From the IMG/VR virus record IMGVR_UViG_3300043410_001917, positions 3,331 to 67,330 of that record: 64,000 nt of DNA; one strand, written 5' to 3'. The position numbers and the translations under genes were made by a program. The notes below the pieces were generated by a model, which did no database searches, had not been told where the DNA came from, and saw only the letters and a program-made list of their open reading frames with translations. Shown here one piece after another: positions 1 to 39,335 of this stretch. Positions within the stretch are counted from its first letter, which is position 1. The number at the start of each line of letters is the position of its first letter. Source of the stretch: a virus.

Positions 1-573
1 ACAGGTTTTGATAAATATTTCAATGATATTATGTTGATGGAATTGAGAGAAGAACGTGACAACAATAGGTTTGATATCTATAATATATGGAATGTTAAAT
101 CGGAAAAGTTGCAAATGGTGAAGGAGAAATTGTTAGAATTACACAAACAAGAACTGTTTGAGTATTTGAATCAAAATCATCCAGCTGGTTATGAACCATA
201 TCTATCAAATGGTTGGTTGAATTATTTTAATACCGGAGAAGGTCTGACTTTACATGACCATGCAGGATCTTTACTGGCTGCAACATATTATGTAAGTGTG
301 CCAGAAAATTCAGGCGATATATATTTTAATGATCCTAGAGGTGCGGTCGATTGGGATTGGCGCTGTGATGGAAAAGTTAAATACACTTCCAAGTTAATTA
401 GAATCAAACCAAAAGCGGGCCAAATTATTATGTTTCCTGCATTTCTCTTTCATGGTGTCGAAGAAAACAAATCAAATAAACCAAGAATTACAGTTACAAC
501 AAATATAATAAATGGAGACATAAAAAACCCTCCAAAAACATTAATAAATAAGCTCTATGATAAACTACTCTAA
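1..573 (+). CDS. 2OG-Fe(II) oxygenase (TIGR02466-like), possibly 5'-truncated by the window edge
   Basis: HDH...YYV...DPRG...FPAFLFHGV...R jelly-roll motifs; frame is open from base 1. Confidence 0.8.
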   Translation, partial: TGFDKYFNDIMLMELREERDNNRFDIYNIWNVKSEKLQMVKEKLLELHKQELFEYLNQNHPAGYEPYLSNGWLNYFNTGEGLTLHDHAGSLLAATYYVSVPENSGDIYFNDPRGAVDWDWRCDGKVKYTSKLIRIKPKAGQIIMFPAFLFHGVEENKSNKPRITVTTNIINGDIKNPPKTLINKLYDKLL

Positions 574-585
574 AACGGAATAAAA

Positions 586-993
586 ATGACCACGCCAACC
601 TCAGGTGCGATATCCTTCTCCAATGTTAATTCTGAAACAGGCCTTGCTGCTGGTGGAGCTTCTTCCAACATGAGTTGGGTTAAGGACAATTCGAAAACCA
701 GTGTTGGTGGAAGCACCGGTGTAGTCAAAGACATGGGTTCATTATACAATAAGGCCTATTATCAAAACAATATGGGTGGTGCTTGTAATAATGGTAACTG
801 CACCAATCAATGTAATTGTGGTAATATAAATTGTAATAATTGTGTTATTAGTGGAACTGTAAATTGTGCTAATTGTGACACTCAAAAATATTTACAACCA
901 AATTGTAATTGTAATTGCACATATAATTGCACTACCACGACCACCTCATACAATTGTAATTGTGATTGTTGGATTTGTGCTTGCACTTGGTAA
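586..993 (+). CDS. Cys/Asn-rich small protein; candidate radical-SAM substrate with a fibre-adhesin-like N-terminus
   Basis: 17 Cys in residues 67-135, 12 of them in Asn-Cys pairs; N-terminus PTSGAISFSNVNSETG; adjacent to rSAM/SPASM gene. Confidence 0.7.
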   Translation: MTTPTSGAISFSNVNSETGLAAGGASSNMSWVKDNSKTSVGGSTGVVKDMGSLYNKAYYQNNMGGACNNGNCTNQCNCGNINCNNCVISGTVNCANCDTQKYLQPNCNCNCTYNCTTTTTSYNCNCDCWICACTW

Positions 994-1020
994 TTTAATA
1001 CATTAATTTATAGGATAATT

Positions 1021-2460
1021 ATGAAATTTGAGATTCTTGCTGAACACTATACTGGTGATAGAAAAACATTCATTTATGACAATGAAACGAATATACTATC
1101 AACTGAAGATGGATTTGTTTTTGAATATCCAGAAATTAAACAACACAATCTAAAAGAAACTAAACCATTTTCAAAATATGATCCTTTAAAAAAATCAAAA
1201 GATATTACACTTATTAAGATTCAATTAGGATTATCTTGTAATTACACTTGTGATTATTGTTCACAACGTTTTGTTGAACGTCCACCAGAAACATCCAAAA
1301 AAGACATTGAAGATTTTATGAAAAAATTGGAAGTGTTGAATATAACTGAAGAACGTGGATTGCGTGTTGAATTTTGGGGTGGAGAACCTCTTGTTTACTG
1401 GAAAACCTTAAAACCTTTAGCTGAAGCAATTGCTGAAAAATTTGGTCATTGGAAAAATAAACCAAGCTTTGGTATGGTAACTAATGGTTCACTTTTAACA
1501 AGAGAAATTTGTTCTTGGTTGTATTATATGAATTTTGGTGTTGGCATTAGTCACGATGGACCAAATCAAGATGTTCGTGGACCAGATCCATTTGATGATG
1601 AAAACAAAAAGAAAATTATATTAGAATTTTATAAAATTATGAAAACACAAAATCGTATTAGTTTTAATGCGATGATGAATGCTAAGAACACGAACAGAAA
1701 AGAAATTAGAGATTGGTTTATTGCACTAACTGGTGATAAAGATGTTCCGATTGGAGAAGGTGGTATGATTGATGCATATGACGATGCGGCCGTATCATTA
1801 TCAATTTCAAGTAAAAGTGAACATTTTGAATATAGACGAAATGCTTTCAATGATATACACACAGAAGGTAAAGAATTAAATTTTGTGTCGGTTCTTAGTA
1901 AAGTGGATGATTTTGTAAATCGTCTATTAAACCACATTGAATCAAAATATGTTGGTCAAAAATGTGGGATGGAAAATGAGGACACAATTGCTCTTGACCT
2001 GAAAGGTAATATTGTCACTTGTCAAAACGTTTCAATTGTAGAAAATAGTAAAAATGGTGAACCACATTATGGTGGCAACTTGGAAGACTATGACAATGTT
2101 CAATTAACATCTGTTACACATTGGAAAAATCGAGTGAGTTGTGGTGATTGTCCTGTATTACACCTATGTAAAGGTTCTTGTATGTATTTGGATGGCCATC
2201 ATTGGGATGTAACTTGTAATTCTGCATATAGTGACAATGTAGTTTCTTTTGCGATTGCAATTTCCAGAATAACAAATGGTTATATTCCTGTTACAATCAA
2301 AGCAGAAGGTTTACCCCTAGATAGACAAGATATTTGGGGAACAGTATATGAACACAAAGAAGAAACAACAAAGAAGATTATTCCTATCAAATTTGTTGCT
2401 GAAAAAATTGGCATGATTGACGATGTTGAGGTTTACGGTAAAACAACAGTAGGAAGTTAA
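1021..2460 (+). CDS. Radical SAM protein with SPASM domain (peptide/protein maturase-like)
   Basis: CNYTCDYC (CxxxCxxC), FWGGEPL, TNGSLL, ISHDG; C-terminal C..C..CGDCPVLHLCKGSC..C. Confidence 0.92.
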   Translation: MKFEILAEHYTGDRKTFIYDNETNILSTEDGFVFEYPEIKQHNLKETKPFSKYDPLKKSKDITLIKIQLGLSCNYTCDYCSQRFVERPPETSKKDIEDFMKKLEVLNITEERGLRVEFWGGEPLVYWKTLKPLAEAIAEKFGHWKNKPSFGMVTNGSLLTREICSWLYYMNFGVGISHDGPNQDVRGPDPFDDENKKKIILEFYKIMKTQNRISFNAMMNAKNTNRKEIRDWFIALTGDKDVPIGEGGMIDAYDDAAVSLSISSKSEHFEYRRNAFNDIHTEGKELNFVSVLSKVDDFVNRLLNHIESKYVGQKCGMENEDTIALDLKGNIVTCQNVSIVENSKNGEPHYGGNLEDYDNVQLTSVTHWKNRVSCGDCPVLHLCKGSCMYLDGHHWDVTCNSAYSDNVVSFAIAISRITNGYIPVTIKAEGLPLDRQDIWGTVYEHKEETTKKIIPIKFVAEKIGMIDDVEVYGKTTVGS

Positions 2461-2461
2461 A

Positions 2462-3172
2462 ATGTCTGAACATTTAAACAATAACATAGAAATATTAAAA
2501 AAAGTATCCGGATGTAATGTTGAGTTGGTGAATATACCACCTCTAATAAAATCGCAAATTGATGTTGAAAGTGTGATGTTTAAATTTACAAAAAAGGGTA
2601 GAGTAGTAAATTTAATAATTCCATCTATATCTGCTGATTTCGACCACAGGTCTACAAATACACATGAAAAATCAGAAGATTTTTTATATGCTGTTAAACA
2701 AATAATGTCAATTTTAGAATCTAACAATCAAGATGAAATTATAAAATTAAAAACTGAAATGCGAGGTGGTGGCCACGATGCACCTTGGCCAGAAATTTTG
2801 TGGCCATTATCTTTTTTTATTGACACTTCAACACATAGAATTATTATTATGAGATATGTGTATCTTGTTACCGAATATGACGAGTGTTTATCATTATTGG
2901 TTGAAGGATTAAAAAAAATTGAAGGTGTTGTAAAAGTAGAAGTGAGAAAACGTTTAGAAGATAAAGATAATGATGTATATTTTATTAGTTGCCACATTGA
3001 TGATTTGATTTATCCTGGTATAACCAACTCTATGGTTGATTGTCATTCAGATGTTGAAACACATGAAATGATAATTCAAAATGTCATCACAACGATACAC
3101 AGTAACAAAATTAGAAACACAATGATGAATGATAGTATGCATTTTAACGAGGAAATTCATACACAACAATGA
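2462..3172 (+). CDS. Hypothetical protein within the enzyme cluster
   Basis: 236-aa ORF starting 1 nt after the rSAM stop; no motif recognised. Confidence 0.6.
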   Translation: MSEHLNNNIEILKKVSGCNVELVNIPPLIKSQIDVESVMFKFTKKGRVVNLIIPSISADFDHRSTNTHEKSEDFLYAVKQIMSILESNNQDEIIKLKTEMRGGGHDAPWPEILWPLSFFIDTSTHRIIIMRYVYLVTEYDECLSLLVEGLKKIEGVVKVEVRKRLEDKDNDVYFISCHIDDLIYPGITNSMVDCHSDVETHEMIIQNVITTIHSNKIRNTMMNDSMHFNEEIHTQQ

Positions 3173-3182
3173 GATAATATAA

Positions 3183-3848
3183 ATGAAATGTGAAAATATT
3201 TTTGGTTTTCCTGTTGTTAGGATAAACTGTGAAGATGAATTAATATATAAAAATGAAGAATTAACTAAGAGTGTTAATTTCGTTTTTAATTCAAACCGTG
3301 TTATTTACCGTGATAGGTCGCTAAAAGGTGATTCACATAAAGGTGGTGGTTTAACTACTGCAAGTGAAAGTTATCTTTCTATCGTGGAACTTCCTGGTGC
3401 TCAACCACTAAAGAAATGGGTGAGCGAACAATTCCTAAAAGTAAAAGATACGATGGGTTGCACATACAAAGGTGACTCAATTTATTTCAAAAGAAGTTGG
3501 GCCAATCGTTTATATCGTGGCGGCCACGGATTGGTTCACAACCATGCCAAAATCGACAACTTCATATCCCAAATGACTGACTATGCCCGTAAGGATTTTA
3601 ATCCTGATGCAGTTGGAATACTCTATGTTGATGTTCCAGAAAGTTCATCCAATCTTGTTTTTATTAACAATGGTAGAACCCAAACCTGGATTGATGAGTA
3701 TGATGAACTTGACACACACTGGATTACACCGATTGAAGGACAACTTGTGATACATCCACCAGAACTATGTCATGCTGTGAGTATTCATCATAACAATCTT
3801 CCACGTAATGTTTTTGTGTTTGATATTGATTATGTTGATGAAGAATGA
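3183..3848 (+). CDS. 2OG-Fe(II) oxygenase (TIGR02466-like)
   Basis: SWAN...HNH...ILYVDVP...HAV...R motif pattern. Confidence 0.75.
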   Translation: MKCENIFGFPVVRINCEDELIYKNEELTKSVNFVFNSNRVIYRDRSLKGDSHKGGGLTTASESYLSIVELPGAQPLKKWVSEQFLKVKDTMGCTYKGDSIYFKRSWANRLYRGGHGLVHNHAKIDNFISQMTDYARKDFNPDAVGILYVDVPESSSNLVFINNGRTQTWIDEYDELDTHWITPIEGQLVIHPPELCHAVSIHHNNLPRNVFVFDIDYVDEE

Positions 3849-4371
3849 AAATCTTTTTGCTACTCCAATCTGGACACACAAACTAGATAAAGAAACAAAT
3901 GATAATATTAAACAAGAAATTGTTAATTATCAGAAAAACACTAATCTGTTTGACTCGGATACCACTGGTATCAAAAAACTAAAAAATACCATTGTTGAAG
4001 CATACGATTCTATTGCCATCGACCACCATTTTATGCGATACTATGGTGAAGTACATGGTCGACTAAATGTAATTGGTTATGGTGTTTGTGATACACCACA
4101 TAATCATATTGGTAAAATGCTTGTTGGTGTTTACTATGTGCAGGTTGGTGAAAATACAGGTGATATTTTGTTACATGACCCAAGAGGTGGAGTCAACTGG
4201 CAGAATTTAAATTTTGATCCACAAGAAAAAGATCCTAATAAAACTTGTAGAACATATCATAGAATTAAACCTGAAAATGGTTTCTTAATTTTGTTTCCTA
4301 GTTATTTGGTTCATTCTGTTGAAACAAATCTTAGTCAAGAAGATAGAATTTCTATCGTAATTAATATTTAA
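3838..4371 (+). CDS. 2OG-Fe(II) oxygenase (TIGR02466-like)
   Basis: LFATPIW start, HNH...GVYYV...DPRG...FPSYLVHSV...RISI; start probably 3838 (or 3832) rather than 3808. Confidence 0.82.
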   Translation: MKNENLFATPIWTHKLDKETNDNIKQEIVNYQKNTNLFDSDTTGIKKLKNTIVEAYDSIAIDHHFMRYYGEVHGRLNVIGYGVCDTPHNHIGKMLVGVYYVQVGENTGDILLHDPRGGVNWQNLNFDPQEKDPNKTCRTYHRIKPENGFLILFPSYLVHSVETNLSQEDRISIVINI

Positions 4372-4380
4372 GGAACATAT

Positions 4381-5910
4381 ATGAAATTTATAGTTGTTGG
4401 TGGTGGAACTTCTGGTTGGTTGACCGCATTATTCACACGAAAAATTTTCCCTGATGCAGAAATAAAAGTTATTGCCAGCAGCGAAATTGGTATACTTGGA
4501 GCTGGAGAAGGTTCGACACCGCAATTCCCACAATTTTTAAAAAGAATTGATATTTCACCATCCGATATCATCAAAAATGCAAAAGGCACACTTAAAAACG
4601 GAATCAAATTTACAAATTGGAACGGTGATGGTGAACACTATTATCATGGATTTCAAGACAATTTAGATTATCTGAAAAAAACAAATTACAACTATCGTGC
4701 TGAATATCTAAACAAAATTAAAAATAATAAATGTTTGGATGATTTACATTTAACTCCATATATTTCTGAACAAAAACAAGTAAAATATAGGAAAGATACA
4801 AATGAACCTGTTGGCCAAGATTCACTACATTTCGATGCAAACTTATTAGCCAAATATTTACAAAGTGTTGCATTTCAAAGAAACATTGAATTGATTGATG
4901 ATGAGGTTGTGGGTATCAATACACATGAAGATAATTACATTAAATCATTGACATTAAAGAATAAGGGTGAAGAAACTTTAGATTTTGTTTTTGATTGCAC
5001 AGGATTTAGACGATTAATCATTGGTGATTTTTATAAAACCAAATGGAACTCATACAAAGACAAGTTACCAATGAATCGTGCTATGCCATTTTTTATTCAA
5101 AATGAAGGTGAACAATTACCTCCATATACAGAATCTATTGCAATGAAATACGGTTGGATTTGGAAGATTCCTGTTCAGGGTAGATATGGGTGTGGTTATG
5201 TGTTTGATTCTAGTTTCGCTAGTGATGAAGAAATCTTGCAGGAAATCAGAGATATGTTTGGAGACGATGTTGTTAGCCCAAGAACGTTTAGTTTTGATGC
5301 AGGTTACTATGACAAAGTTTGTGTTAATAATTGTATTGCCGTTGGTTTATCATCCGGTTTTGTTGAACCTTTGGAAGCCACAAGTATTTGGGTTCAAATT
5401 GTCGCACTAACTCAATTTGAATTTAGTAGAAACGAAATATTAACCCGCAATCAAAAATACATTGATAATTATAATCAAACATTAAAATCAATAAATCAAT
5501 CAGTATTGAATTTTATATATTTTCACTATTTAACTCCACGTAATGATAGTAATTTTTGGAAAACATTTAGAGAAAAAAATCAAGTTCTACCTTTCATTGA
5601 AAAACTGAGTGAAATTTGTGAGGAAAATATTCCTGAAAAAGAGGTTTATGAATATCTTACATCAATGGAAAATGTTCGAATTGGTTGTCAAAATGTTTCA
5701 GATACAAATATATTTTCTAGAGATAGTTGGTTACAGGTTGGTTCTGGCATTCGCTTCTTTAGTAAAGATATTGCCGCCAAGGAATTTGAACAAAACTTTA
5801 AATATTATAAACCAAGTTTAGATATGATTGAATTACATAAACAAAACAATTTGGATCTATTAAAACATAATCAACATTTACAAAATATAAAAGAGAAAAA
5901 TAATGTCTGA
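4381..5910 (+). CDS. Tryptophan-halogenase-family flavin-dependent halogenase
   Basis: GGGTSG FAD motif, GEGST, TLKNGIKFTNW (catalytic Lys region), DCTGF, WIWKIP (WxWxIP), FVEPLEATS. Confidence 0.92.
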   Translation: MKFIVVGGGTSGWLTALFTRKIFPDAEIKVIASSEIGILGAGEGSTPQFPQFLKRIDISPSDIIKNAKGTLKNGIKFTNWNGDGEHYYHGFQDNLDYLKKTNYNYRAEYLNKIKNNKCLDDLHLTPYISEQKQVKYRKDTNEPVGQDSLHFDANLLAKYLQSVAFQRNIELIDDEVVGINTHEDNYIKSLTLKNKGEETLDFVFDCTGFRRLIIGDFYKTKWNSYKDKLPMNRAMPFFIQNEGEQLPPYTESIAMKYGWIWKIPVQGRYGCGYVFDSSFASDEEILQEIRDMFGDDVVSPRTFSFDAGYYDKVCVNNCIAVGLSSGFVEPLEATSIWVQIVALTQFEFSRNEILTRNQKYIDNYNQTLKSINQSVLNFIYFHYLTPRNDSNFWKTFREKNQVLPFIEKLSEICEENIPEKEVYEYLTSMENVRIGCQNVSDTNIFSRDSWLQVGSGIRFFSKDIAAKEFEQNFKYYKPSLDMIELHKQNNLDLLKHNQHLQNIKEKNNV

Positions 5911-7447
5911 TTGTATTATTATAGGTGATGGAGTAGGTCATGCAGAAGATTTTAGTAGGATACAGAGAAGTCTAGGTGCATATAGAGTTGCTTCAGAATT
6001 AATAGAAAAAGGTTATTCAACATTCGTTTTTGATTTTATTAATGAATTCACTTTGAAAGAAATATTTGATGTTTTAGATAAACACCTGAATGAAAAAACT
6101 TTGTGGGTAGGATTCAGCTCAACATTTTTTTGGCCGATAGGATACCAAGAAGATTTGCAAAATGTTCTGAATAATAAAATTGAACATGAACATTCTTCTT
6201 TGAATTTAATGTATTGGAAAAATTACACTTTTGTTAAAAATATAATCGAATATATAAAAAGTAAAAGTAAGGCAAAAATTGTATATGGTGGTGCAAAAAC
6301 TCCTTACACATTGATTGATAAGAATGTGGATTATTATGTTTTGGGTTATGCTGATGTGACAATTTTAGAATTGACAGATTTCTTAGCAGGAAAAAAACAA
6401 TCCATTGAACATATTGAAGAAGTAGAAATTGATGGTGTAAAGAAATATAAAATAGATTCTTTCAAGTATGCAGAACCAAGAATGGATTCCATTTCAACAA
6501 GTTGGTGGCGTAAAGAATTTAATATATTGCCTGCTGAAAGTTTACCAATTGAAACTGGTCGAGGTTGTATTTTCAAATGTAAATTTTGTTCCTTTCCTTT
6601 ACTTGGTAAGAAAAAAGGAACATATACTAGGTCTTGTGGTATAATAAGAGAAGAATTGATAAAAACATTTGAGACAACAGGAACAACTTCCTTCTACATC
6701 ACAGATGATACATTTAATGATGACAATGATAAGATGGAAGAATTTCATAAAATGTTTACCAGCCTACCATTCAAACCAAAATTAACTGGTTATTTGCGAT
6801 TGGATTTGATAAACAAATACACACATCAAGCAGATTTGTTGTCTGAAATGGGTTTTGTTGGTGCTTTTTTTGGTATAGAAACATTACAACCGGAAAGTGC
6901 TAAGAGTATAGGTAAGGGATTGCATCCTAATAAGGTGAAAGATAGATTATATTGGCTCGCAGAAAAGTGGAAAAATAAAATAAATGTTACTTCCGGTTTC
7001 ATTCTTGGTTTACCATACGATACCACAGATTATTTTGATGAATTATTTAATTGGTCTTTAGAAGATGACAACCCTCTACAAGAGATTATTTTTTATCCAT
7101 TGAAGTTATTCAATAATAAAACTAATAAAGAATTGGATAGATATAATTCCGAGTTTGCTATAAATCCAGAAATATATGGTTATGAATTCAATACGATAAC
7201 TGATTGGAGATTACCATCACAAAAATTAGATTATAATATGTGTAAAAACATTGCAGAATATTATAATAATATTAGGGGACCAAAAAATAAAATTTCTTCA
7301 TTCACTATGCACACTATGGCAAATTTAGGTGTATCATACGATGATATGTATAAATGCACACAAAATGAATTGTTAAATAGATATAACTTTGAAGAATTGA
7401 ATAGATTGAAGATTGAAGAATATAAAGGATTGATTTTGAATGTTTAA
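5903..7447 (+). CDS. Cobalamin-binding-domain radical SAM protein
   Basis: ETGRGCIFKCKFC, ITDDTFN, FGIET, GFILGLPYDT; N-terminal LGAYRVA..L...GY B12-domain-like segment. Confidence 0.85.
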   Translation: MSDCIIIGDGVGHAEDFSRIQRSLGAYRVASELIEKGYSTFVFDFINEFTLKEIFDVLDKHLNEKTLWVGFSSTFFWPIGYQEDLQNVLNNKIEHEHSSLNLMYWKNYTFVKNIIEYIKSKSKAKIVYGGAKTPYTLIDKNVDYYVLGYADVTILELTDFLAGKKQSIEHIEEVEIDGVKKYKIDSFKYAEPRMDSISTSWWRKEFNILPAESLPIETGRGCIFKCKFCSFPLLGKKKGTYTRSCGIIREELIKTFETTGTTSFYITDDTFNDDNDKMEEFHKMFTSLPFKPKLTGYLRLDLINKYTHQADLLSEMGFVGAFFGIETLQPESAKSIGKGLHPNKVKDRLYWLAEKWKNKINVTSGFILGLPYDTTDYFDELFNWSLEDDNPLQEIIFYPLKLFNNKTNKELDRYNSEFAINPEIYGYEFNTITDWRLPSQKLDYNMCKNIAEYYNNIRGPKNKISSFTMHTMANLGVSYDDMYKCTQNELLNRYNFEELNRLKIEEYKGLILNV

Positions 7448-8099
7448 TTATTGCCCACCAAAAGAGATTCCAAAGATTGAATCTCAAACTTTCCCTGATG
7501 GGAAAAGATATTATGTTACACCAAATGGTAAAAAATTGCCATCGGTAACTACTGTGGTGGGCGCACAGAAAAAACAATCCATTTTAGAATGGCGCCGTAG
7601 AGTTGGTGAAGATGTTGCAAACAAAATTTCCAGACAAGCAACATCACGTGGCACCAATATGCATACGATGTGTGAATACTATTTGAACAATGAACCAAAA
7701 CCACCAGGTAACGTCATGCCTGATGCGAAAGAATTGTTCATATCAATCAAACCATATCTAAACAAAATCAACAATATACATTACCAAGAAGTTGGTTTGT
7801 GGTCTGAACAATTAGGTTTGGCGGGTCGTGTAGATTGTATTGGTGAATATGAAGGTAAGTTATCTGTTATTGATTTTAAAACATCCAAAAAAATCAAAAC
7901 ACGTGAATCAATTCTAGATTATTTCTGGCAAACTACTGCATATGCATTGATGTATGAAGAATTGATTGGACAACCTATTGATGATTTGGTAATCATTATG
8001 GCGGTAGACAATGAACAACCAATCATCTTCAAAGAAAAAACACAAGACCATATTGAAGGTTTAGTTAGAGCTATTGATTATTACCACAAAAACAGTTGA
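7440..8099 (+). CDS. PD-(D/E)XK (Cas4-like) exonuclease common in T4-like phages
   Basis: LPSVTTV, RGTNMH, AGRVDC, IDFKTS, QTTAYA motifs. Confidence 0.88.
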   Translation: MFNYCPPKEIPKIESQTFPDGKRYYVTPNGKKLPSVTTVVGAQKKQSILEWRRRVGEDVANKISRQATSRGTNMHTMCEYYLNNEPKPPGNVMPDAKELFISIKPYLNKINNIHYQEVGLWSEQLGLAGRVDCIGEYEGKLSVIDFKTSKKIKTRESILDYFWQTTAYALMYEELIGQPIDDLVIIMAVDNEQPIIFKEKTQDHIEGLVRAIDYYHKNS

Positions 8100-8124
8100 C
8101 AAACTAAATAAATTGGTGTATAAT
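8096..8124 (+). promoter_or_regulatory. Consensus sigma70 promoter with an embedded late-promoter-like CTAAATA
   Basis: TTGACA (8096-8101), 17-nt spacer, TATAAT (8119-8124); CTAAATA at 8104-8110. Confidence 0.85.
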
Positions 8125-8130
8125 ACAATT

Positions 8131-8262
8131 ATGGATAAATTATTTTTACTTGTTATTGTTGTAGGTTTACACGCTTATTGGATTTATAAGTTGGTAAACT
8201 ATGATTGGAATAATTTTGAAAAAGATTCAGAGGGTGACGATTTTTTGAAACCCTATGAGTGA
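8131..8262 (+). CDS. Small (43 aa) putative membrane protein, probably leaderless
   Basis: MDKLFLLVIVVGLHAYWIYKLV hydrophobic stretch plus acidic tail; ATG begins 7 nt after the -10 box. Confidence 0.55.
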   Translation: MDKLFLLVIVVGLHAYWIYKLVNYDWNNFEKDSEGDDFLKPYE

Positions 8263-8307
8263 TTATGGTTGTATGAAGCAACTAGAAACGTATTCTGTAA
8301 TCTTCAA

Positions 8308-8330
8308 CTCCACTAAATAAAAGTGGAGGT
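8308..8330 (+). promoter_or_regulatory. RBS-sequestering hairpin containing a late promoter, upstream of the HNH gene
   Basis: CTCCACT (8308-8314) pairs with AGTGGAG (8322-8328), covering SD GGAG; CTAAATA at 8313-8319. Confidence 0.75.
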
Positions 8331-8334
8331 GTAT

Positions 8335-8880
8335 ATGAGAAGTTATTCCTTGATTTGTTGTGATGGTTGCGAAAAACAATTTGAAAAAGAAACAAGATAT
8401 GTAAAAGCGGCTGAAAAGAAAGGTAGACGCCTTTACTGTTCACTATCTTGCCATGCAAAACACACAAGAGAAGAAAAGTTGGGTGTTTGGGTGCATAGTG
8501 AAGAAAACAAGAAAATGGCCAGAAGTTTGGCTGGTAATAGAAAGGATGAATATAGTCCTTTCAGAACACTATTAAAAAGTTGTAGAACAAGAACTAATAA
8601 AGGTGGGAATCCAAAAGGTGATTTTAATTTGGATTTACCATATCTCAAAGAACTTTGGGAAAAACAAAACGGTAAATGTGCCATCACAAAGGTTGACTTA
8701 ATTTTAGAATCTAGTTATAATAAAAATTATCAAGCGTCACTGGATAGAATTGATAGTTCCAAAGGATATGTGAAAGGCAATGTCAGATACATTAGTGTAT
8801 CCGCAAATTGGTTAAAGAATAACCTGGATGATGAACACATAAAAGAATTTATCCGGATTTGTAAAATGGTAGTAAACTGA
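8335..8880 (+). mobile_element. Free-standing HNH-type (homing) endonuclease with N-terminal Zn-binding motif
   Basis: CDGC...YCSLSC; GKCAIT...SLDRIDSSKGYVKGNVRYISVSAN; SD GGAGGT before ATG 8335. Confidence 0.75.
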
Positions 8881-9162
8881 TTTTTTGAAAAGTTGGCAAG
8901 ACGCCGGGGCAGCACCGGCCATCTCCACCAAAAGAATTCTTCACCCTGTATAGAGACAGACAAGTGCTATAGACTATACTAAAGAGTTCTTTTGATGGGG
9001 ATGAACCAGTTTCGATTGACAAATTAGTAAATTAATTGGCTACCCGACACAGATAGTCGTAAAAACTAAATCAAAGTAAACGCAAACGATGAAAAGTTCG
9101 CATTGGCAGCCTAAACGCTGACTAGGGTTTCGGTAGGTTTCCTCGTAACAGAATAACCTACT
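8868..9162 (+). ncRNA. ssrA: Circularly permuted two-piece tmRNA: acceptor piece ~8868-8930, intervening segment 8931-8996, coding piece 8997-~9162
   Basis: T-arm GCCGG-GGCAGCA-CCGGC then CATCTCC-A-CCA precedes the 5' strand GGGGATG, giving a 7-bp acceptor stem with G3-U70; tag frame 9082-9114 encodes ANDEKFALAA-stop. Confidence 0.92.
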
Positions 9163-9185
9163 ATCTTTTATTAACAGGAGAAAAT

Positions 9186-9728
9186 ATGAAAAAAAGTTTA
9201 GTTGCTCTAGCAACAATGGTTTCATTGTCAGCATTTGCTGGTAGTTATGTTCAAGTTGAACAAGAACATGTTATCGGGCGTGCAGGTGCTGCAAATAGTG
9301 AAGCAACTTACCTACGTGCAGGTAAGGATTTTGGAGACACATCGGTTAACTTGCAAAGTCGTACCGCTCGTTTTTCAACAAACAGCATCAGTTCAAGCCT
9401 AGAAGGAACTGTTTCTAACAAAAACGCAAGCATTCTTGGTATCACACCATTCGTTGGAATGGGCCACGATTTTGGTGGAACCGCTAGTGGTTACAATTAT
9501 GGCCTAGTTGGCGCATCAACTGGTGTTAAAGTTGGACCTGGTTCAGCATATGCAGGTGTTAAAACCCGTGTATTGCGCCAAAATGATTCCGATCCAAAGC
9601 AAACAGTTGTATACGCTGGTTACAACATGCCTGTTGCCAAAGATGTATCATTTAACGTTGGTCTAAGTCATTCAGGCCAAGACATTAAAGAAAGAGGCGT
9701 TTCAGCTGGTCTTTCTTTCGGTTTCTAA
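9186..9728 (+). CDS. Putative outer-membrane beta-barrel protein
   Basis: Sec signal MKKSLVALATMVSLSAFA, amphipathic beta strands, C-terminal AGLSFGF; SD AGGAG. Confidence 0.7.
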   Translation: MKKSLVALATMVSLSAFAGSYVQVEQEHVIGRAGAANSEATYLRAGKDFGDTSVNLQSRTARFSTNSISSSLEGTVSNKNASILGITPFVGMGHDFGGTASGYNYGLVGASTGVKVGPGSAYAGVKTRVLRQNDSDPKQTVVYAGYNMPVAKDVSFNVGLSHSGQDIKERGVSAGLSFGF

Positions 9729-10637: not shown

Positions 10638-10859
10638 GTGCCGACAAAAACAGAGATTAATGAATTTAGTGAAATGATTAGTGGAAAATCGGTTGCCTTG
10701 CAATGTTCCCATATGGAGGCAATCGTTTATCATTGTGAAGAAACTGGTATGGAAGTTGATGTGGCTTCTACTCTAATATCAAGTGCTTTGAAAGCAAAGA
10801 TTAGAGAAGAAGCCCAAGACTTGAATTTGTTGAAGAAAAGTTCTAAATTGCCTCTATGA
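10638..10859 (+). CDS. gp33: Late-promoter transcription coactivator gp33
   Basis: MEAIVYHCEETGME...LKAKIREEAQDLNLLK; GTG start; lies just before gp59. Confidence 0.85.
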   Translation: MPTKTEINEFSEMISGKSVALQCSHMEAIVYHCEETGMEVDVASTLISSALKAKIREEAQDLNLLKKSSKLPL

Positions 10860-11464
10860 CCGAAACGACAGGATTTGAAGCATATGCCCTCTACCAAAGC
10901 ATTAAACTTCATTTTACTTCTGATTCTTACGATTTTTTTCGCTATAACGGAAAAACCAACGTATCAAAGGACAACTTTGCAAACAACAAAGCTAAGTATT
11001 CCTTTTATAAACTTTCCAGGAAGTATAGTTTAGAAGAATTACGGTCGTTTTATATTGCCAATTTTCTGGAAACTACCGTGAATTGGGTTGGTGATATATC
11101 AGGAGTGGAAGGTGAAGAAAATTATAAAAAATGGCAAAAAAGAAACCAGAGCTTGACTTACAAGTTCGAACAAGATATAATAGGACTACTTAACGCAACA
11201 CAATCACCAAATGAAATGTTGATGGTTGAAGATGGACAATATCCATTGTTGTTAAAAGAAATGACTTATGGTAACATAAGCATAGAAACGGTTTGTATAT
11301 TGAATGATATTATGAATTTCTTGCCGATGTGGTCTAAGAAAATAACAGACGATGTTGTTTGGCCATCATACAAAAGAAAGATTGAAAAATATACACCATT
11401 TATTCATTATGATAAACAAAAATTTAAAAATATTTTGAAAGAAAGTCTGAAAGAACATGCCTAA
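10856..11464 (+). CDS. gp59: Helicase loader gp59
   Basis: YQSIKLHFT...YDFFRYNGK, ISIETVCIL, KIEKYTPF; T4 synteny 33-59-32. Confidence 0.9.
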   Translation: MTETTGFEAYALYQSIKLHFTSDSYDFFRYNGKTNVSKDNFANNKAKYSFYKLSRKYSLEELRSFYIANFLETTVNWVGDISGVEGEENYKKWQKRNQSLTYKFEQDIIGLLNATQSPNEMLMVEDGQYPLLLKEMTYGNISIETVCILNDIMNFLPMWSKKITDDVVWPSYKRKIEKYTPFIHYDKQKFKNILKESLKEHA

Positions 11465-12028: not shown

Positions 12029-12922
12029 ATGAGTATTGATTTTTCAAGCCTAAAGAAAAGTTCAGGCAATCTGGACAAGTTGAAATCTAAAGTAGCAGAG
12101 CTCAACGCATCAACAGAAGGCAAATCCGATAAAGAAAATTTTTGGCGACCAGAAGTGGACAAAGCCGGTAACGGCATGGCTACGATTCGTTTTCTACCAG
12201 CAGCTTTTGTTGATGGTGATGACGGTCTTCCTTGGGCTAAGATTTTCGAACACGGCTTTCAAGGTCCTGGTGGTTGGTTAATCGACAAATGTTTGACAAC
12301 CAAGAACCAGCAATGTCCAGTTTGTGAACACAACAACAAATTGTGGAACTCTGGTATTGAAGCCAACAAAGAAATTGTTCGTAAGCAAAAACGCAAACTA
12401 TCTTACATTGCAAACGTGTATATCGTAAGTGATCCAAAGCATCCAGAGAACGAAGGACAAGTTAAATTGTTCAAGTTTGGTGCCAAGATTTTCGAAAAGA
12501 TTACAGAGGCAATGAATCCACAGTTTGAAGATGAAACACCAATCAATCCATTTGATTTCTGGAAAGGTGCTAACTTCAAGTTGAAGATTACTAAGGTTGC
12601 AGGTTATCAGAACTATGATAAGTCTGAATTTATGTCACCATCAGCATTGTTGGATGACGATGCAGAACTAGAGAAGATTTGGAAGTCTCAGCATTCTCTT
12701 TCAGAGTTGACTGCTGACAAAGAATTCAAGTCTTATGATGCTTTGAAAACACGTTTGGATAAAGTTCTTGGTTTGAATGATGATGGTGATGCTCCAAGAG
12801 CAAGAACCACAGTTGAACAAGCTAAGGCTGCACCTAAGAAAGTTGCTGATGATACTCCACCATGGGAACCAGCAACAGACGATGATGACATGGCATATTT
12901 TGCCAAGTTGGCTGACGATTAA
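12029..12922 (+). CDS. gp32: Single-stranded DNA-binding protein gp32
   Basis: DKAGNGMATIRFLP, HGFQGPGGW, CPVCE, YQNYDKSEF, acidic tail DDMAYFAKLA. Confidence 0.97.
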   Translation: MSIDFSSLKKSSGNLDKLKSKVAELNASTEGKSDKENFWRPEVDKAGNGMATIRFLPAAFVDGDDGLPWAKIFEHGFQGPGGWLIDKCLTTKNQQCPVCEHNNKLWNSGIEANKEIVRKQKRKLSYIANVYIVSDPKHPENEGQVKLFKFGAKIFEKITEAMNPQFEDETPINPFDFWKGANFKLKITKVAGYQNYDKSEFMSPSALLDDDAELEKIWKSQHSLSELTADKEFKSYDALKTRLDKVLGLNDDGDAPRARTTVEQAKAAPKKVADDTPPWEPATDDDDMAYFAKLADD

Positions 12923-32963: not shown

Positions 32964-35900
32964 ATGGCTTTAAATTTTAACGTTGATCCATACTATGACG
33001 ATTTCGATGGAACAAAAAACTTCCACCGTATATTGTTTAAACCTGGTGTTGCTGTGCAAGCCAGAGAGTTAACGCAAGCACAAACAATATTACAAAATCA
33101 AATCACAAGTTTCGCTGACAACATCTTTAAACAAAACTCACCCGTTAGTGGTGGTCAGGTCACAACAAACTTTGATGTAAAGTATATCAAAATTCAAGCA
33201 GAATATAACGGTATTACTATTGATGTTGAACAGTTTCAAAATAAACTAATTAGAAATGCAGACGGAACAATTGTTGCTAGAGTTGTGGCCACGGCCGTTG
33301 CAACAGGAACATCTGGTGAAGGCGATCCGGCTACATTAGTTGTTTCTTATAAAACAGGAACACATTTCACAGACAACGATATCATCTATGACGCAGACTC
33401 CAATCTAACTTGCCAAGCTATGCCAAGTGATGCGGTTGGTTCTTCTTCAATCGCTTCAATTGCACAAGGTGTATTCTATGTTTTGGGTAACTTTGTTCAA
33501 GTTAATCCACAGACTGTAATCTTAGACAAGTATGGTAATCTTCCATCAAGACGTATTGGTTTGGAAATTACAGAAACAATTTATGATTATGCAACAGACA
33601 ATTCATTATTGGATCCAGCAGTTGGTGCATCCAACTATCAAGCACCAGGTGCAGACCGTTATGTAATCAGTCTACAATTATCTTCTAGACCATTATATCT
33701 TGGTGATGATGCTTTGTTTATTGAATTGGTTCGTGCAGAAGAAGGAAATGTATTTAAAATGGTTGATGGTTCCGTGTATGCAGCCATCGATGATTACTTT
33801 GCTAAGCGTGACTATGAAACCAATGGTGATTATATTGTTGAAGAATTCAAATTAACACCGAAAGTTTATGATGAAGATGCAGACAAATATACAATGACTG
33901 TCGGCAAAGGTTTGGCATATGTTCATGGATATCGTGTGGAGAATCCAGCACCACTTAATATCATTTCCAACCGTGCAAGAACAACTGCAACACAAGACAA
34001 CGAACCAGCATTTATTGACTATGGTAGTTATTTCTTAGTAAGTAATGTTGCGGGTTCTGGAACATATACATTTCCAGTAACAACTGCCAACACCGTAGAT
34101 TTTCATTGTGTTGCAAATACGGATATTAATACAGCAAACGCAACAACATACAATTCTACATTGGTTGCAACAGCTTATATTCGTGGCCTACAGTTTGATA
34201 ATAGTCCAGTAACAGCCGATGGAAGCACATACGTTTACAAAGCACATGTTTACGATTTAGTAAACAAATCAATTTCTGCAAATGTTATTACGGCAAATTC
34301 AACCTCTATAACATTACCTTCTGTTAATGGAAAAACATCTTCAGTTGACCATGCATATGATGGTGTTGATGTAACAATCACCAAAGGCACTAACGCTGGT
34401 GAAACAAGAACAATTTCAAACTACAACGGAACAACCAGAGTTGCAACAGTAAGCCAGGCCTGGAGTGTTACGCCAGATAGTTCATCTGTTTATGTTTTAA
34501 ATTTTAACACACCAGATGTTGAATCCATGGTGTTTACGGGCACATCTTATCCAAAAACAATATATGCAAGTGCGGACATTGATGACACAGGTAAAACAGG
34601 AAACATTTCTTCTGGTGATACTGTGTTCCAAAATCCAAATATACCAGAAATGGTGTACCCAATTGGTAACCCATATGTTTCCACCATCACATCACCATCT
34701 TATACAACATATCAAGAAATTAAAGGTGTGAATTTCAACGTATCTGGTGGAACAATTACCGCAACAATCGATTTTACTGGAAGTTATGCTGGCGTCATTA
34801 AACATTTAGGTAACGAAGGCACAACACTTTCTGGTGACGTTGTTGAACAATGTTACACAATCATTGTAACAGATAGACAATCAAACTCCACACTAACCAA
34901 TGGACAAATTGTTCCATGGACAATTAATGGACGTTCTGTTACCTTAAACAACGATGGTTCTGTTGCAAACTTTTCAACAGCAACATCAGATTTGTCAGCG
35001 TTCACAGCAACAATTATTGCCAAAGTATTTGTTACAGATGGAACAAACACAAGTCATGTGTTAAAAATTAAAAATTTAGTAAAAGGAAATACTGCAATCG
35101 TAAGTAGTAATGCGTCTGCTTACATGACTACAATTGCAACAAATACTTTTGTGGATGATTCTTCTAGTTCAACTGGTCATGTATACATCAAAAAAGGTGG
35201 TGTTTTGTCTAGTGGCAAACAATCATTATATCTTTCTGATGTTAAGAGAATTGTAAAAATCATTGATACAAAAACTGATATACTTCCAACTGTTGCTATG
35301 TTAACGGATGTTTCATATGATGTTACAAATCGTTACATATTTGATAATGGTCAAAGAGATAGTTACTACGACCATGCGTCCATATCATTGAGACCTGGTG
35401 CAGCAAAGCCCGTTGGTAATTTATTAATTATTTTAGACTATTATAAACATGCGGGTGGTGATGGTTACTTTAGTAAAATGTCATACATAGATACTTCAAG
35501 TTCACCAGAAGATTATAGAGAAATTCCAGTCTACGTGAGTAAACACGGTGCAGCTTATGCGTTGAGAGATTGTTTGGACTTTAGACCTTCAAGACTTAAT
35601 GCACAGTCACAATTTGTTTTCCGTTTCTCAAATCCTTCTTCAACCAGATTGGGTGTTTTACAGCCAGCCAATTTGTCAACATTTGTATGTGATTATTCTT
35701 ATTATCTTGGCCGTAAAGATAAATTGGTTATCACCAAAGATAAAGAAATTAAAATAATTGAAGGTTCACCATCAATTAATCCTATTGCACCAAACGAACC
35801 AGATAAATCATTGGTATTGGCAAATATTACACTGAAACCATACACAAGTTATGTTCCTTCAGAACTATCTTCTGGACTATCCGACCTTTCAATATTACAG

Positions 35901-38900: not shown

Positions 38901-39335
38901 GGTGGTCCTGCAGCTGCAAGATATATGTCCAAAAAAGTAGTTTTGGATGGTGGTTTTGATTCAGGTGACCTAAATGTTTACATATCTGCATATCGTCCAG
39001 TTGGAACAGATATTAATGTATACTATAAAATTTTGAGTAGAAATGATACACAGAATTTTGATGATGGTGTTTGGCAATTAATGACAAAGACCAGAAGTTC
39101 TGATGGAAACTATTCACAAACAAGAGAAGATATACGTGAATACACCTTTTCACCAGGTTCATTAGGTGTTGATGCAGGTTACGTTTCTTATACTGGAAAT
39201 GGTGGAGAAACATATTACGATTTCAGTCAATTTGCAATCAAGATTGTAATGACTACAACAGACAAAACTCTTGTTCCTTTCTTGGCGGATATGAGATGCA
39301 TTGCTCTGCCACCAAATACTAATACCACATTTTAA
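32964..39335 (+). CDS. Large VrlC-like virion structural protein (DUF4815-type)
   Basis: PYYDDFD, ILFKPG.AVQARELTQ, APGADR, RRYTMSDI..L..RI..IEYYT, FKNG..VDDF, DPVAQTF. Confidence 0.82.
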   Translation: MALNFNVDPYYDDFDGTKNFHRILFKPGVAVQARELTQAQTILQNQITSFADNIFKQNSPVSGGQVTTNFDVKYIKIQAEYNGITIDVEQFQNKLIRNADGTIVARVVATAVATGTSGEGDPATLVVSYKTGTHFTDNDIIYDADSNLTCQAMPSDAVGSSSIASIAQGVFYVLGNFVQVNPQTVILDKYGNLPSRRIGLEITETIYDYATDNSLLDPAVGASNYQAPGADRYVISLQLSSRPLYLGDDALFIELVRAEEGNVFKMVDGSVYAAIDDYFAKRDYETNGDYIVEEFKLTPKVYDEDADKYTMTVGKGLAYVHGYRVENPAPLNIISNRARTTATQDNEPAFIDYGSYFLVSNVAGSGTYTFPVTTANTVDFHCVANTDINTANATTYNSTLVATAYIRGLQFDNSPVTADGSTYVYKAHVYDLVNKSISANVITANSTSITLPSVNGKTSSVDHAYDGVDVTITKGTNAGETRTISNYNGTTRVATVSQAWSVTPDSSSVYVLNFNTPDVESMVFTGTSYPKTIYASADIDDTGKTGNISSGDTVFQNPNIPEMVYPIGNPYVSTITSPSYTTYQEIKGVNFNVSGGTITATIDFTGSYAGVIKHLGNEGTTLSGDVVEQCYTIIVTDRQSNSTLTNGQIVPWTINGRSVTLNNDGSVANFSTATSDLSAFTATIIAKVFVTDGTNTSHVLKIKNLVKGNTAIVSSNASAYMTTIATNTFVDDSSSSTGHVYIKKGGVLSSGKQSLYLSDVKRIVKIIDTKTDILPTVAMLTDVSYDVTNRYIFDNGQRDSYYDHASISLRPGAAKPVGNLLIILDYYKHAGGDGYFSKMSYIDTSSSPEDYREIPVYVSKHGAAYALRDCLDFRPSRLNAQSQFVFRFSNPSSTRLGVLQPANLSTFVCDYSYYLGRKDKLVITKDKEIKIIEGSPSINPIAPNEPDKSLVLANITLKPYTSYVPSELSSGLSDLSILQTQHRRYTMSDIAGLDTRINRIEYYTSLSQLEQSANALQISDAYGLNRFKNGIMVDDFSSFAAADVGTGDFNASINRRTKQLTAKQHVKNFPLKNLSLIYSMNKTTSSAIASQNFAKTTNGSTNYFSLPYTTTNLVAQKLASRTVNINPFAVTTAKGLVSLSPNVDNWVDSTYSPSLLIVDPNLHIWQSGNELNTLLTGDWQTVSATSQLVGSTSTTSQSTVNHENHGRFNGPYGTNVGYTEHITETFTTETYKVTTNQSRNDIVGNYSQIDNTYSLNNGYINDISILPWIRKQEVVISAFNLLYKTQIHGFFDTKNVDNYIRKSNEIELTNVAGSFSQGDIIGYYSSGTYFPTGIVLGVYEYPDTNNCRLYVAGDGKTTTYNNGLSLQNSHYNSDGVYQNTTAQGTFVSQKHRGGLVQTVGSSTSITLSSLASSDNTDYVGQTLYITSGSGKGQSAVVSSYNGTTKVITLTTGITCSAGDIYSIGTFVTNEEGSFYGVFTIPENTFQTGTRVFRMDNRLNDNESTITTYGEGSFYASGLQTNKQNIDFGASPSGAKDTFTQVNKQTVISSATKNLYNRSVWISPYDPVAQTFIIDKDNYPNGAFLTSIKAFFASKPTSDTAPVTLSVVGTLNGYPNGSTLDNGIVTLPAYKIKTSESPQYLDSTAYTEFVFDSPVYVQPETLYAFILKSSSNEYTLYAAANGDNALPSSVKNLVTDPYPSSITKISGAPYVGGLFLSQNAQTWTVDQNQSLMFTIERAKFDITKTPSIRMVVPKKMPQRTLIEDSVDYYTNANNLTDNIGTTSNKDLLVDAFNLSTTDFVPSSTKISYTYSAMLQNGADTSEISVNPGRYGTTMYNHIYLNDNKGERIIKANSTTSFSMYGYLESTNDAVSPFIADSGTSVFAIQYDINNCPLSNNLITVTDGGSGYNVQTTTVSISAPTGKNSEQAYATANVVNGVIDAIYITTPGAGYIETPTITITDANTTPGTGATAIVAGETSSRGGPAAARYMSKKVVLDGGFDSGDLNVYISAYRPVGTDINVYYKILSRNDTQNFDDGVWQLMTKTRSSDGNYSQTREDIREYTFSPGSLGVDAGYVSYTGNGGETYYDFSQFAIKIVMTTTDKTLVPFLADMRCIALPPNTNTTF

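Follow-up and report, generated by a model that had tools for sequence, protein, structure and literature searches.

Does a short segment of an uncultured viral genome encode a genuine tmRNA in two pieces, and how did the two halves of this gene, which resemble different bacterial types, come to lie side by side? The segment (8868-9162, + strand) belongs to a window of 64,000 nucleotides, the whole stretch of DNA analysed here, which spans positions 3,331 to 67,330 of the IMG/VR record IMGVR_UViG_3300043410_001917. A preliminary description of the window had read the segment as a circularly permuted, two-piece tmRNA of a T4-like phage.

Identification of the gene

The segment is a circularly permuted ssrA gene. 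The Rfam family tmRNA_permuted (RF04321) matches it over the full model (positions 1-213 of 213) with 121.8 bits against a cut-off of 47, and beta_tmRNA (RF01850) matches 8811-9170 with 108.1 bits against a cut-off of 84. Both cut-offs are the curated gathering thresholds. The preliminary description had suggested checks with Infernal and ARAGORN, and the covariance-model check succeeded with the scores above. The outcome with ARAGORN was divided: at the default threshold the gene scored too low and none was reported, as for the whole clade, while the relaxed -ps setting found it. Since the relaxed setting and two covariance models do recover the gene, the null result at the default threshold is not taken as evidence against it. 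A blastn search with 8811-9170 retrieved no match among 50,697 phage records, so that no cultured phage in this set carries a close copy, although the search tool may skip near-identical records. We consider it likely that 8868-9162 is a genuine permuted ssrA gene under selection, with the two-piece mechanism and mosaic make-up proposed below, in an uncultured freshwater T4-like (Kyanoviridae-like) phage. The sequence statements of the preliminary description were all confirmed.

The novelty that the preliminary description implied is not supported. For the T4-like phage Melnitz, Buchholz et al. 2022 (PMC9004378) reported an ssrA in two pieces, and they counted a further 53 in phage genomes. 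A two-piece tmRNA in a T4-like phage is thus an already published kind of gene, to which the window copy adds no new kind. The only unusual point of this copy looks to be its patchwork appearance, tied to a neighboring nuclease gene. The published census undercounts phage tmRNAs because its tool, ARAGORN at default settings, misses the whole clade.

Melnitz (a Methylophilales phage, MZ577097, with ssrA as gene 86) and the Pelagibacter phage HTVC008M (KC465899) are, like the window phage, T4-like Kyanoviridae-type phages with a permuted gene, which RF04321 scores at 113.4 and 90.6 bits, respectively. Melnitz also has the alpha T-loop GGCAGTA. However, identity to the window is 62-69% in every module for both phages. 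In Melnitz the tag is long and alpha-style (ANDNYVPVDYALAA) and the spacer measures 142 nt; HTVC008M has the T-loop TGCAATA and the tag ANFNEYALAA. Two small hypothetical ORFs are annotated between the nuclease and ssrA in Melnitz, with no HNH gene there. Both phages are marine, whereas the window phage is from freshwater, and the published marine case of Melnitz and pelagimyophages is now extended to a large freshwater lineage. A glutamine (glnA-type) riboswitch was reported in the 3' domain of Melnitz ssrA (PMC9004378). No Rfam riboswitch family was found in the window at the gathering threshold, nor in 8600-9400 at E <= 10.

Genomic setting

The genome carrying the gene is T4-like by PHROGs assignments, which include gp32, gp59, gp2, gp4 and the baseplate proteins gp5/6/7/8/25/48/53/54. 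The tmRNA gene lies between a PD-(D/E)XK nuclease gene and gp59/gp32. The order exonuclease, tmRNA, ..., gp59, gp32 recurs in all five fetched relatives, among them three complete genomes of 161-171 kb, and Melnitz and HTVC008M carry their tmRNA at the same exonuclease...gp59/gp32 locus. The slot is occupied in phages whose gp32 proteins are 49-78% identical. A candidate assignment of orf9814 as gp33 was rejected, as it has no BLASTP similarity to the late-transcription coactivator of S-SCSM1.

The gene could in principle be a decaying passenger or an attP-like remnant of integration at a host ssrA, without function for the phage. Integration at tmRNA genes is common and pieces of such genes are found in prophages (PMC9004378, PMC4131195), and the ARAGORN score of the window copy is below threshold. 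Both tmRNA pieces are complete, however, compensatory change is extensive, and the slot is kept across phages with gp32 as divergent as stated above. The PHROGs scan, which covered 53 ORFs, assigned no integrase family. We regard a functionless remnant as highly improbable.

The stretch is present in freshwater and riverine DNA runs and in six RNA-library runs. Contigs from three RNA runs extend unbroken across the spacer, from 8300 to ~9155, though such contigs hide RNA ends and may reflect DNA carry-over. Missing RNA-contig cover beyond ~9170 carries no information. A pattern scan of IMG/VR returned at least 120 loci.

Acceptor piece, spacer and tRNA-like half

The permuted order shows in the tRNA-like parts: the gene runs from the T-arm through the 3' acceptor strand and CCA to a 66-nt spacer, and only then reaches the 5' acceptor strand. 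In line with the preliminary description, 8930 is the last position of the encoded ACCA and 8997 the first of GGGGATG. The acceptor piece (8868-8930, + strand, 63 nt), delimited by Rfam alignment with base pairs checked, contains the 5' strands of helix P2, the T-arm, the 3' acceptor strand and the encoded ACCA. Its identity across six viral loci is 94-100%. The acceptor stem GGGGATG/CATCTCC forms 7 of 7 pairs with a G-T at position 3, which upholds the proposed G3-U alanylation determinant, and the G-U is conserved in 36/36 aligned relatives. The T-arm (8903-8919, + strand) is defined by pairing and covariation and reads GCCGG-GGCAGCA-CCGGC, with a stem of 5 bp and the non-canonical loop at 8908-8914 that had been noticed earlier. 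The stem is paired in all 36 relatives, and three of its five base pairs show compensatory changes.

The intervening segment (8931-8996, + strand, 66 nt) is predicted to be removed and is closed by a 10-bp helix. As first proposed, AAAGAATTCT (8931-8940) pairs with AGAGTTCTTT (8983-8992) at 10 of 10 positions, one of them G-U, and all ten closing pairs appear in the minimum free energy (MFE) fold of the precursor. The spacer is 98% identical to that of locus L055 and 86% to that of L046, and the tRNA-like domain of L046 differs.

The 5' part of the coding piece (8997-9044, + strand), again delimited by Rfam alignment with base pairs checked, holds the 5' acceptor strand GGGGATG, the D-loop analogue AACCAGTTTCGA and the 3' strands of P2. 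Helix P2d (8893-8899 with 9016-9022) is 97.6% paired with two-sided changes at 7 of 7 pairs. T-loop and D-loop covary perfectly among the 104 viral genes in the matches listed: TTC goes with GG in 73/73 genes, and GGC or TGC goes with AG in 31/31.

Coding piece and tag

The coding piece starts at 8997 and is ~166 nt long. The beta-style mRNA-like domain begins with the first stem of PK1 (CGAC/GTCG, 9045-9059, + strand), located from the Rfam beta_tmRNA alignment, and the MFE fold gives 4 of 4 pairs of this stem. The tag reading frame (9082-9114, + strand) opens with the resume codon GCA, closes with TAA and reads ANDEKFALAA, the tag given in the preliminary description. Just ahead of the resume codon, TAA at 9077-9079 is invariant in relatives. 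An in-frame AND...LAA tag is kept in 35/36 aligned relatives, which encode 18 different peptides. The hairpin that had been seen at the end of the coding piece (9132-9162, + strand) has an 8-bp stem and a 15-nt loop, as defined by covariation and the MFE fold. It is 90.3% paired, 6 of 8 pairs are changed on both sides, and the MFE fold recovers 8 of 8. The loop sequence is nearly invariant in the viral family and agrees with the beta_tmRNA consensus loop. A T-rich tail follows directly 3' of the hairpin. AGGG (9124-9127) and TCCT in the hairpin loop could form a pseudoknot, which gains no support from covariation because both sides are invariant.

In an alignment of 36 viral genes the paired fraction of cells is 80.6%, compared to 68.4% in shuffles, and none of 500 shuffles reached the observed value. 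P2d, T-arm, acceptor stem and 3' hairpin are 90-100% paired in these genes, with many two-sided changes. Helices 1, 2 and 6 are 46-74% paired in the MAFFT alignment, which may be due to misalignment between module types or to real differences. The MFE fold contains 0 of 15 pairs of the inner P2 helices. Because of the poor pairing in helices 1, 2 and 6 and the lack of inner P2 in the MFE fold, covariation support is claimed for P2d, T-arm, acceptor stem and 3' hairpin only. Co-folding of the two pieces gains -13.8 kcal/mol over separate folds. Truncation or loss of pairing is not frequent among relatives.

Proposed mechanism

Two sigma-70-type promoter-like sites precede the gene on the + strand. 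TTGACA-17-TATAAT at 8096-8124 (12/12 consensus matches) coincides with the left edge of the HNH insertion discussed below and is, as a consensus match, a putative promoter. TTGACT-17-TATAAT at 8693-8721 (11/12 matches) lies inside the HNH ORF, ~147 nt upstream of the RNA, where it may act as a promoter too. The RNA would be transcribed from these sites, either jointly with the HNH gene that precedes it or immediately thereafter. Host tRNA-processing enzymes would then cut the precursor, with RNase P acting at 8996/8997 and 3' trimming reaching the encoded CCA at 8930, and the 66-nt spacer would be removed. Pairing in the acceptor stem and helix P2 would hold the acceptor piece (63 nt) and the coding piece (~166 nt) together. 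Host AlaRS could charge the RNA via the G3-U pair, and host SmpB and EF-Tu would bring it to stalled ribosomes. Translation is predicted to resume at GCA 9082 and to add ANDEKFALAA, which would mark the product for host ClpXP-type proteolysis. Host SmpB is assumed because the contig and related records encode none: PF01668 is absent at E <= 1 from the whole 67,330-base contig, which extends the earlier observation for the window, and SmpB was not found in five of five related records, including three complete genomes.

A phage without SmpB must compete for the host protein with its RNA, and the RNA might soak up host SmpB or otherwise block host trans-translation, with no tagging of its own. 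A decoy role of this type has been proposed for a molecule of mycobacteriophage DS6A that consists of a tRNA-like domain only. Hudson et al. 2014 (PMC4131195) cite work in which tmRNA was strongly inhibited by a molecule made up of the tRNA-like domain only. The tRNA-like module of the window gene also differs in type from its mRNA-like domain, which would suit such a role. We nevertheless consider a decoy unlikely, as the full mRNA-like domain is retained. The kept tag frame, in which the AND start and LAA end are fixed and the middle varies, the invariant TAA, the first stem of PK1 and the 3' hairpin all speak against a decoy because a decoy needs none of them. A tagging tmRNA remains the preferred reading. 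The suggestion in the preliminary description that the RNA offsets cleavage of host tmRNA or tRNA is a speculation to which no feature of the sequence speaks.

Two modules of different type

At the level of sequence, the window tmRNA is a mosaic of an alpha-style tRNA-like module and a beta-style mRNA-like domain. The preliminary description had proposed an alpha-type architecture with a short beta/gamma-like tag, and the two halves searched separately bear this out. For the tRNA-like half on its own, alpha_tmRNA (RF01849) is the top model, with 55.9 bits above a cut-off of 50 and a match to model positions 55-193 of 355. For the coding half on its own, the top model within the clan is beta_tmRNA, with 63.4 bits, under the cut-off of 84. 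For the mRNA-like domain, the beta sequence profile scores 32.2 bits and the alpha profile 10.0 bits, hence the tag domain is not alpha-like. The alpha-style traits are the T-loop GGCAGCA, AG and not GG in the D-loop analogue, and P2 strands of its own. The beta-style domain is 93% identical to that of relatives carrying a canonical tRNA-like module.

Alphaproteobacterial genes of the Caulobacter type (RF01849) share with the window gene an AG in place of GG in the D-loop analogue and have a similar T-loop. GGCRGTA occurs in 27/28 parsed alphaproteobacterial genes, and the window loop is one base off (C for T, position 6). The relatives L055, L057 and L077 have GGCAGTA exactly. However, the scores of bacterial alpha genes lie at 123-313 bits for the full alpha model, whereas the phage gene matches only the part given above, and the acceptor stem is GGGGGCG in alpha genes and GGGGATG in the window.

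Sharkady and Williams reportedly described a lineage of betaproteobacterial two-piece tmRNA in 2004. The full window gene passes the betaproteobacterial model RF01850, its 3' hairpin loop follows the consensus of that model, and some Cupriavidus permuted genes encode the identical tag. A tag-region pattern common to the phage gene is found at at least 120 bacterial loci, nearly all in Betaproteobacteria, and 72 among the matches listed are permuted. The T-loops differ, though: all 55 parsed bacterial beta-type genes have canonical TTCRAYT-type loops (TTCGATT, TTCGACT, TTCAATT, TTCGAAT), a pattern that GGCAGCA fails. Of the 36 bacterial genes with a parsed spacer, one has 86 nt and the others 23-44 nt, compared to 66 nt in the phage. 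The upstream promoter block of RF01850 has no counterpart in the phage, and the last hairpin of the model is deleted there. The best bacterial blastn matches cover ~100-116 nt only, at 79-85% identity.

The mosaic is the useful part of the finding. Such genes are natural chimeras that bear on which half of a tmRNA must match host SmpB, AlaRS and proteases. For Melnitz, the ssrA type has been interpreted through a tree as a record of past hosts. Reading the ssrA type as such a record is unsafe if tRNA-like and tag modules recombine freely.

The upstream HNH-like gene

An ORF of 185 aa (8323-8880, + strand) lies just upstream, and its end, stop codon included, reaches 13 nt into the tmRNA gene. 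PHROGs profiles identify it as HNH/endonuclease-VII-like (phrog_3322 endonuclease, 5.4e-22; phrog_1035 endonuclease VII, 3.3e-14; phrog_3118 HNH endonuclease, 8.4e-14). The name comes from these profiles alone, as the ORF has no Pfam match at E <= 1 and no PDB sequence relative at E <= 0.01. Among the matches listed, an HNH-like gene lies just upstream in 7/7 genes of the clade with alpha-style T-loops (6/6 loci and the window) and in 0/97 others.

The HNH-like gene and the alpha-style tRNA-like module might form one mobile cassette, in which a putative free-standing homing endonuclease is spread by repair, with co-conversion to ~9040. We put this forward tentatively, as a possibility on the unlikely side. 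In the canonical allele, the cut would then fall in the highly conserved tRNA-like part or at the exonuclease-ssrA junction, and the cassette's own module, itself immune to cleavage, would be carried along. If the cassette exists, selfish nucleases would drive the modular evolution of phage tmRNAs, the half facing SmpB and AlaRS would be swapped independently of the tag half, and the alpha look would be a homing scar with no trace of host history. The linkage makes homing beside a stable-RNA gene a concrete and cheaply testable idea.

The mosaic might also have arisen by ordinary homologous recombination or by convergent T-loop and D-loop change, with the HNH gene as a neutral marker of a sub-lineage. 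This is a serious possibility, if short of an even chance. Modules are shuffled without an HNH gene as well: L077 and L069 have spacers that are 98% identical and acceptor pieces that are 64% identical, and the spacer shared with L046 likewise goes with an acceptor piece at 64%. The seven cassette genes, four of them near-identical, amount to about three independent observations of linkage. However, the co-occurrence in the matches listed is perfect, and the first bases of the variant module overlap the HNH stop codon. Identity to the HNH-bearing L077 peaks beside the HNH gene and falls off with distance, while identity to the HNH-less L035 rises to 88-100% only from ~9040, a sharp breakpoint. 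Nor are HNH carriers grouped by phage backbone. L035, which has the canonical module, and L077 each have a gp32 78% identical to that of the window phage, and the exonuclease of L035 is the closer one (73% vs 63%). As far as these protein comparisons reach, HNH linkage does not track the phage backbone.

SegB is a free-standing homing endonuclease in the tRNA cluster of T4. Unlike homing endonucleases beside T4-type RNA genes, the window ORF lies upstream of the RNA gene with a 13-nt overlap, outside the spacer or any intron, lacks relatives in Pfam and PDB, and has a putative nuclease activity. What it has in common with those systems is its place right beside a conserved gene for a stable RNA, as a small nuclease-like ORF that some close relatives have and others lack, surrounded by mosaic sequence.

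Identity and anatomy of the phage tmRNA gene

The gene at 8868-9162 (+) is a real phage two-piece tmRNA, and the encoded RNA is probably functional. The permuted architecture proposed in the preliminary description is recovered by two Rfam models above their curated cut-offs, namely tmRNA_permuted (RF04321; 8868-9114, 121.8 bits against 47) and beta_tmRNA (RF01850; 8811-9170, 108.1 bits against 84). A base-by-base check confirmed the order of the pieces, with the acceptor piece (8868-8930, +; 63 nt, 3' end ACCA) preceding the coding piece, which begins GGGGATG at 8997 (+). The intervening 66-nt spacer (8931-8996, +) is indeed closed, by a 10-bp helix including one G-U pair. The acceptor stem pairs at 7/7 positions and carries G-T at position 3, matching the expected alanylation determinant, and the frame at 9082-9114 (+) reads ANDEKFALAA* as predicted. 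The unaided MFE fold of the precursor produces the outer P2 helix, T-arm, acceptor stem, spacer helix, PK1 stem 1 and 3' hairpin in full, while the inner P2 helices are absent from it (0/15 pairs). ARAGORN, suggested earlier as a check, found no gene by default and called a below-threshold permuted tmRNA only with -ps. Default settings likewise called none of the seven members of the alpha-style clade (the window gene and L045, L050, L103, L055, L057 and L077), versus 5/5 canonical neighbours tested.

Phage two-piece tmRNAs are a kind already known, and the window gene is one more member. Buchholz et al. (2022; PMC9004378) report that Melnitz, a T4-like OM43 phage, carries a two-piece ssrA, that ARAGORN called 53 two-piece tmRNAs across 18,146 phage genomes, 50 of these being aquatic, and that 17 of 47 Melnitz-like contigs contain a permuted gene. 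In the tmRNA database paper (PMC11915505), 79 bacteriophage sequences are listed. We verified permuted tmRNAs in Melnitz (113.4 bits) and Pelagibacter phage HTVC008M (90.6 bits), in both cases between a PDDEXK nuclease and gp59/gp32, as in the window; S-H9-2 and S-SCSM1, both checked, contain no permuted tmRNA. Against this background, the mosaic structure and nuclease link described below represent a modest, testable addition.

Conservation and selection

A degenerate permuted-junction pattern matched at least 120 IMG/VR loci. Among the 120 matches listed, ARAGORN called 93 as permuted tmRNA by default and 102 in relaxed mode, and 65 were matched to the window gene by blastn. From these listed matches we aligned the window gene with 35 non-identical relatives whose mRNA-like domains are at least 72% identical, and counted pairing using the structure of the Rfam alignment. 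Paired cells amounted to 80.6% versus 68.4% in shuffles, none of 500 shuffles being as high. P2d is 97.6% paired with both-side changes at 7/7 pairs, and pairing is complete (100%) in the T-arm and acceptor stem. In the 3' hairpin, whose loop is nearly invariant, 90.3% of cells pair and 6/8 pairs have both-side changes. Pairing in this alignment is poor for helices 1, 2 and 6 (46-74%), which were given no weight. G3-U is present in 36/36 genes. An in-frame tag with an AND start and LAA end occurs in 35/36, in 18 versions; the tag of the remaining gene (L074) was unparsed by the pattern used. The TAA at 9077-9079, 3-5 nt 5' of the resume codon, is invariant, and we take it to correspond to the frame-setting U85/A86 region of E. 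coli tmRNA. The window tmRNA gene is under selection.

A mosaic of alpha-style and beta-style halves

The alpha-type architecture and beta/gamma-like tag noted from the sequence alone map onto different parts of the gene. Searched alone, 8860-9044 matches alpha_tmRNA best (55.9 bits, cut-off 50) and 8997-9175 matches beta_tmRNA best (63.4 bits). Sequence profiles built from the parsed bacterial sets concur, giving the acceptor piece 11.1 bits for alpha versus 6.2 for beta, the first 48 nt of the coding piece 2.2 versus 5.6, and the mRNA-like domain 10.0 versus 32.2. Among the viral matches listed, only L045, L050 and L103 also have the non-canonical T-loop GGCAGCA, correctly read in the preliminary description, and L055, L057 and L077 carry GGCAGTA. 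Of 101 alphaproteobacterial genomes searched with RF01849 (including G046, which is flagged unpublished and entered this tally alone), 97 scored above cut-off; among the 28 parsed of the best 30 loci, 27 carry GGCRGTA, from which the loop of the window gene differs by one base, and one GGCAGTG. The beta-type tag pattern matched at least 120 bacterial loci, and 72 of the 120 listed are permuted. After leaving out the seven nearest to the phage, which may be phage-borne (L154, L175, L203, L205, L213, L220, L236), all 55 T-loops parsed from the 113 listed loci kept are TTCRAYT, unlike that of the window gene. Across 104 viral genes, the T-loop and D-loop analogue co-vary perfectly (TTC with GG in 73/73, GGC or TGC with AG in 31/31). 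The unusual T-loop thus belongs to a coherent tRNA-like module and is not a product of decay.

Comparisons among phages place the junction within the gene. The mRNA-like domain of the window is 93% identical to those of L035, L062 and L082, with acceptor pieces at 66-67%, and 82-85% identical to those of L055, L057 and L077, with acceptor pieces at 94-98%. Along the L035 contig, identity to the window is ~30-70% until ~9040 and 88-100% over 9040-9139; along the L077 contig it lies at 75-92% across the 3' half of the HNH-like ORF and the acceptor piece, and goes down to 68% at 9040-9079. Spacer identity reaches 86% between the window (8931-8996) and L046 and 98% between L077 and L069, each pair having acceptor pieces at 64%. 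By these identities, spacers are swapped between phage ssrA genes independently of both flanking modules.

An HNH/endonuclease-VII-like ORF (8323-8880), named by PHROGs only, shares 13 nt with the RNA gene. Homologues lie 5' of the tmRNA in 6/6 alpha-style clade loci versus 0/97 other parsed loci among the matches listed; in 24 of those 97, an exonuclease gene is directly 5'. Because locus flanks extend 400 nt at most, the viral loci show no more of the ORF than its C-terminal part. The L035 phage shares 78% gp32 and 73% exonuclease identity with the window, and the L077 phage 78% and 63%; judged by these proteins, carriers of the HNH-like gene do not form a backbone clade. The simplest reading is that a ~0.95-kb cassette (~8100 to 9044) comprising the HNH gene, acceptor piece, spacer and 5' tRNA-like part moves between related phages, and the putative nuclease may drive this movement.

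Genomic setting and expression

The source contig (67,330 bases, IMG/VR viral, CheckV completeness 39%), of which the window is bases 3331-67330, is T4-like by PHROG profiles for gp32 (12029-12922), the gp59 helicase loader (10856-11464), gp2, gp4 and baseplate proteins of the gp5/6/7/8/25/48/53/54 set. Its gp32 is nearest to those of T4-like cyanophages (57-58% identity) and of HTVC008M (53%), and the public runs in which the stretch occurs carry freshwater or riverine labels. The permuted tmRNA occupies the same slot in 5/5 fetched relatives, three of which are complete (161-171 kb, with terminal repeats): PD-(D/E)XK exonuclease, tmRNA, orf9814 homologue (in 4/5, with none found in L282), cell-wall hydrolase, gp59, gp32. 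The absence of smpB noted for the window extends to the whole source contig and 5/5 related records, so the tmRNA of the window has to rely on host SmpB.

Promoter-like sites lie at 8096-8124 (12/12 consensus matches) and 8693-8721 (11/12). RNA-library contigs from three runs cover 8300 to ~9155 unbroken, which is compatible with precursor or DNA carry-over and uninformative on processing. One RNA-library contig, from run X18, tracks the window to 8992 and then enters the 5' end of another tmRNA. Co-occurring tmRNA genes were probably joined here by a cross-over in assembly, which calls for caution when the 8868-9162 locus is read from contigs.

Directly 3' of the tmRNA, a 180-aa ORF (9186-9728, +) with a signal-peptide-like start has a single, sub-threshold Pfam match (20.6 bits against 27) to PF24653, a cyanophage outer-membrane-protein-like beta barrel. 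Neither the five syntenic relatives nor the listed 120 short viral loci yielded a homologue, and the ORF looks like a lineage-specific insertion in the same hot spot. The tmRNA-adjacent exonuclease homologue of L299 (G115:C1:926-1579) has one in-frame TAG. Elsewhere in the window, PHROG profiles name three 2OG-Fe(II) oxygenases, radical-SAM proteins and a halogenase. One run (31-7447, +) holds the three oxygenase ORFs together with a tryptophan-halogenase-like ORF (4381-5910) and two further ORFs, one a phrog_1802 radical-SAM ORF and the other (5903-7447) carrying a Pfam Radical_SAM domain. This run may be a phage cluster modifying small molecules or peptides. Two very large ORFs encode 2123 aa (32964-39335, +) and 1956 aa (52250-58120, +); the former matches only PHROG families of unknown function, the latter repeat-rich families including virion structural and baseplate wedge proteins.

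Bacterial look-alikes

Cupriavidus sp. amp6 (G003; L175/L247, L242) has two permuted tmRNA genes (156.5 and 127.1 bits); the second, located on a short contig of 7.8 kb, encodes ANDEKFALAA, the tag of the phage. Other Cupriavidus have similar copies (L205, L213, L236), and all of these may be second copies carried by prophages or islands. The best "bacterial" match to the phage tag domain (84.6% over 104 nt) is a beta-style permuted tmRNA (L154/L243; 119.7 bits, tag ANDEQFALAA) on a 23-kb contig of a MAG labelled Haliscomenobacter (G004, Bacteroidota). The same MAG has a second hit elsewhere (67.4 bits), and the 23-kb contig could be a phage contig binned in error.
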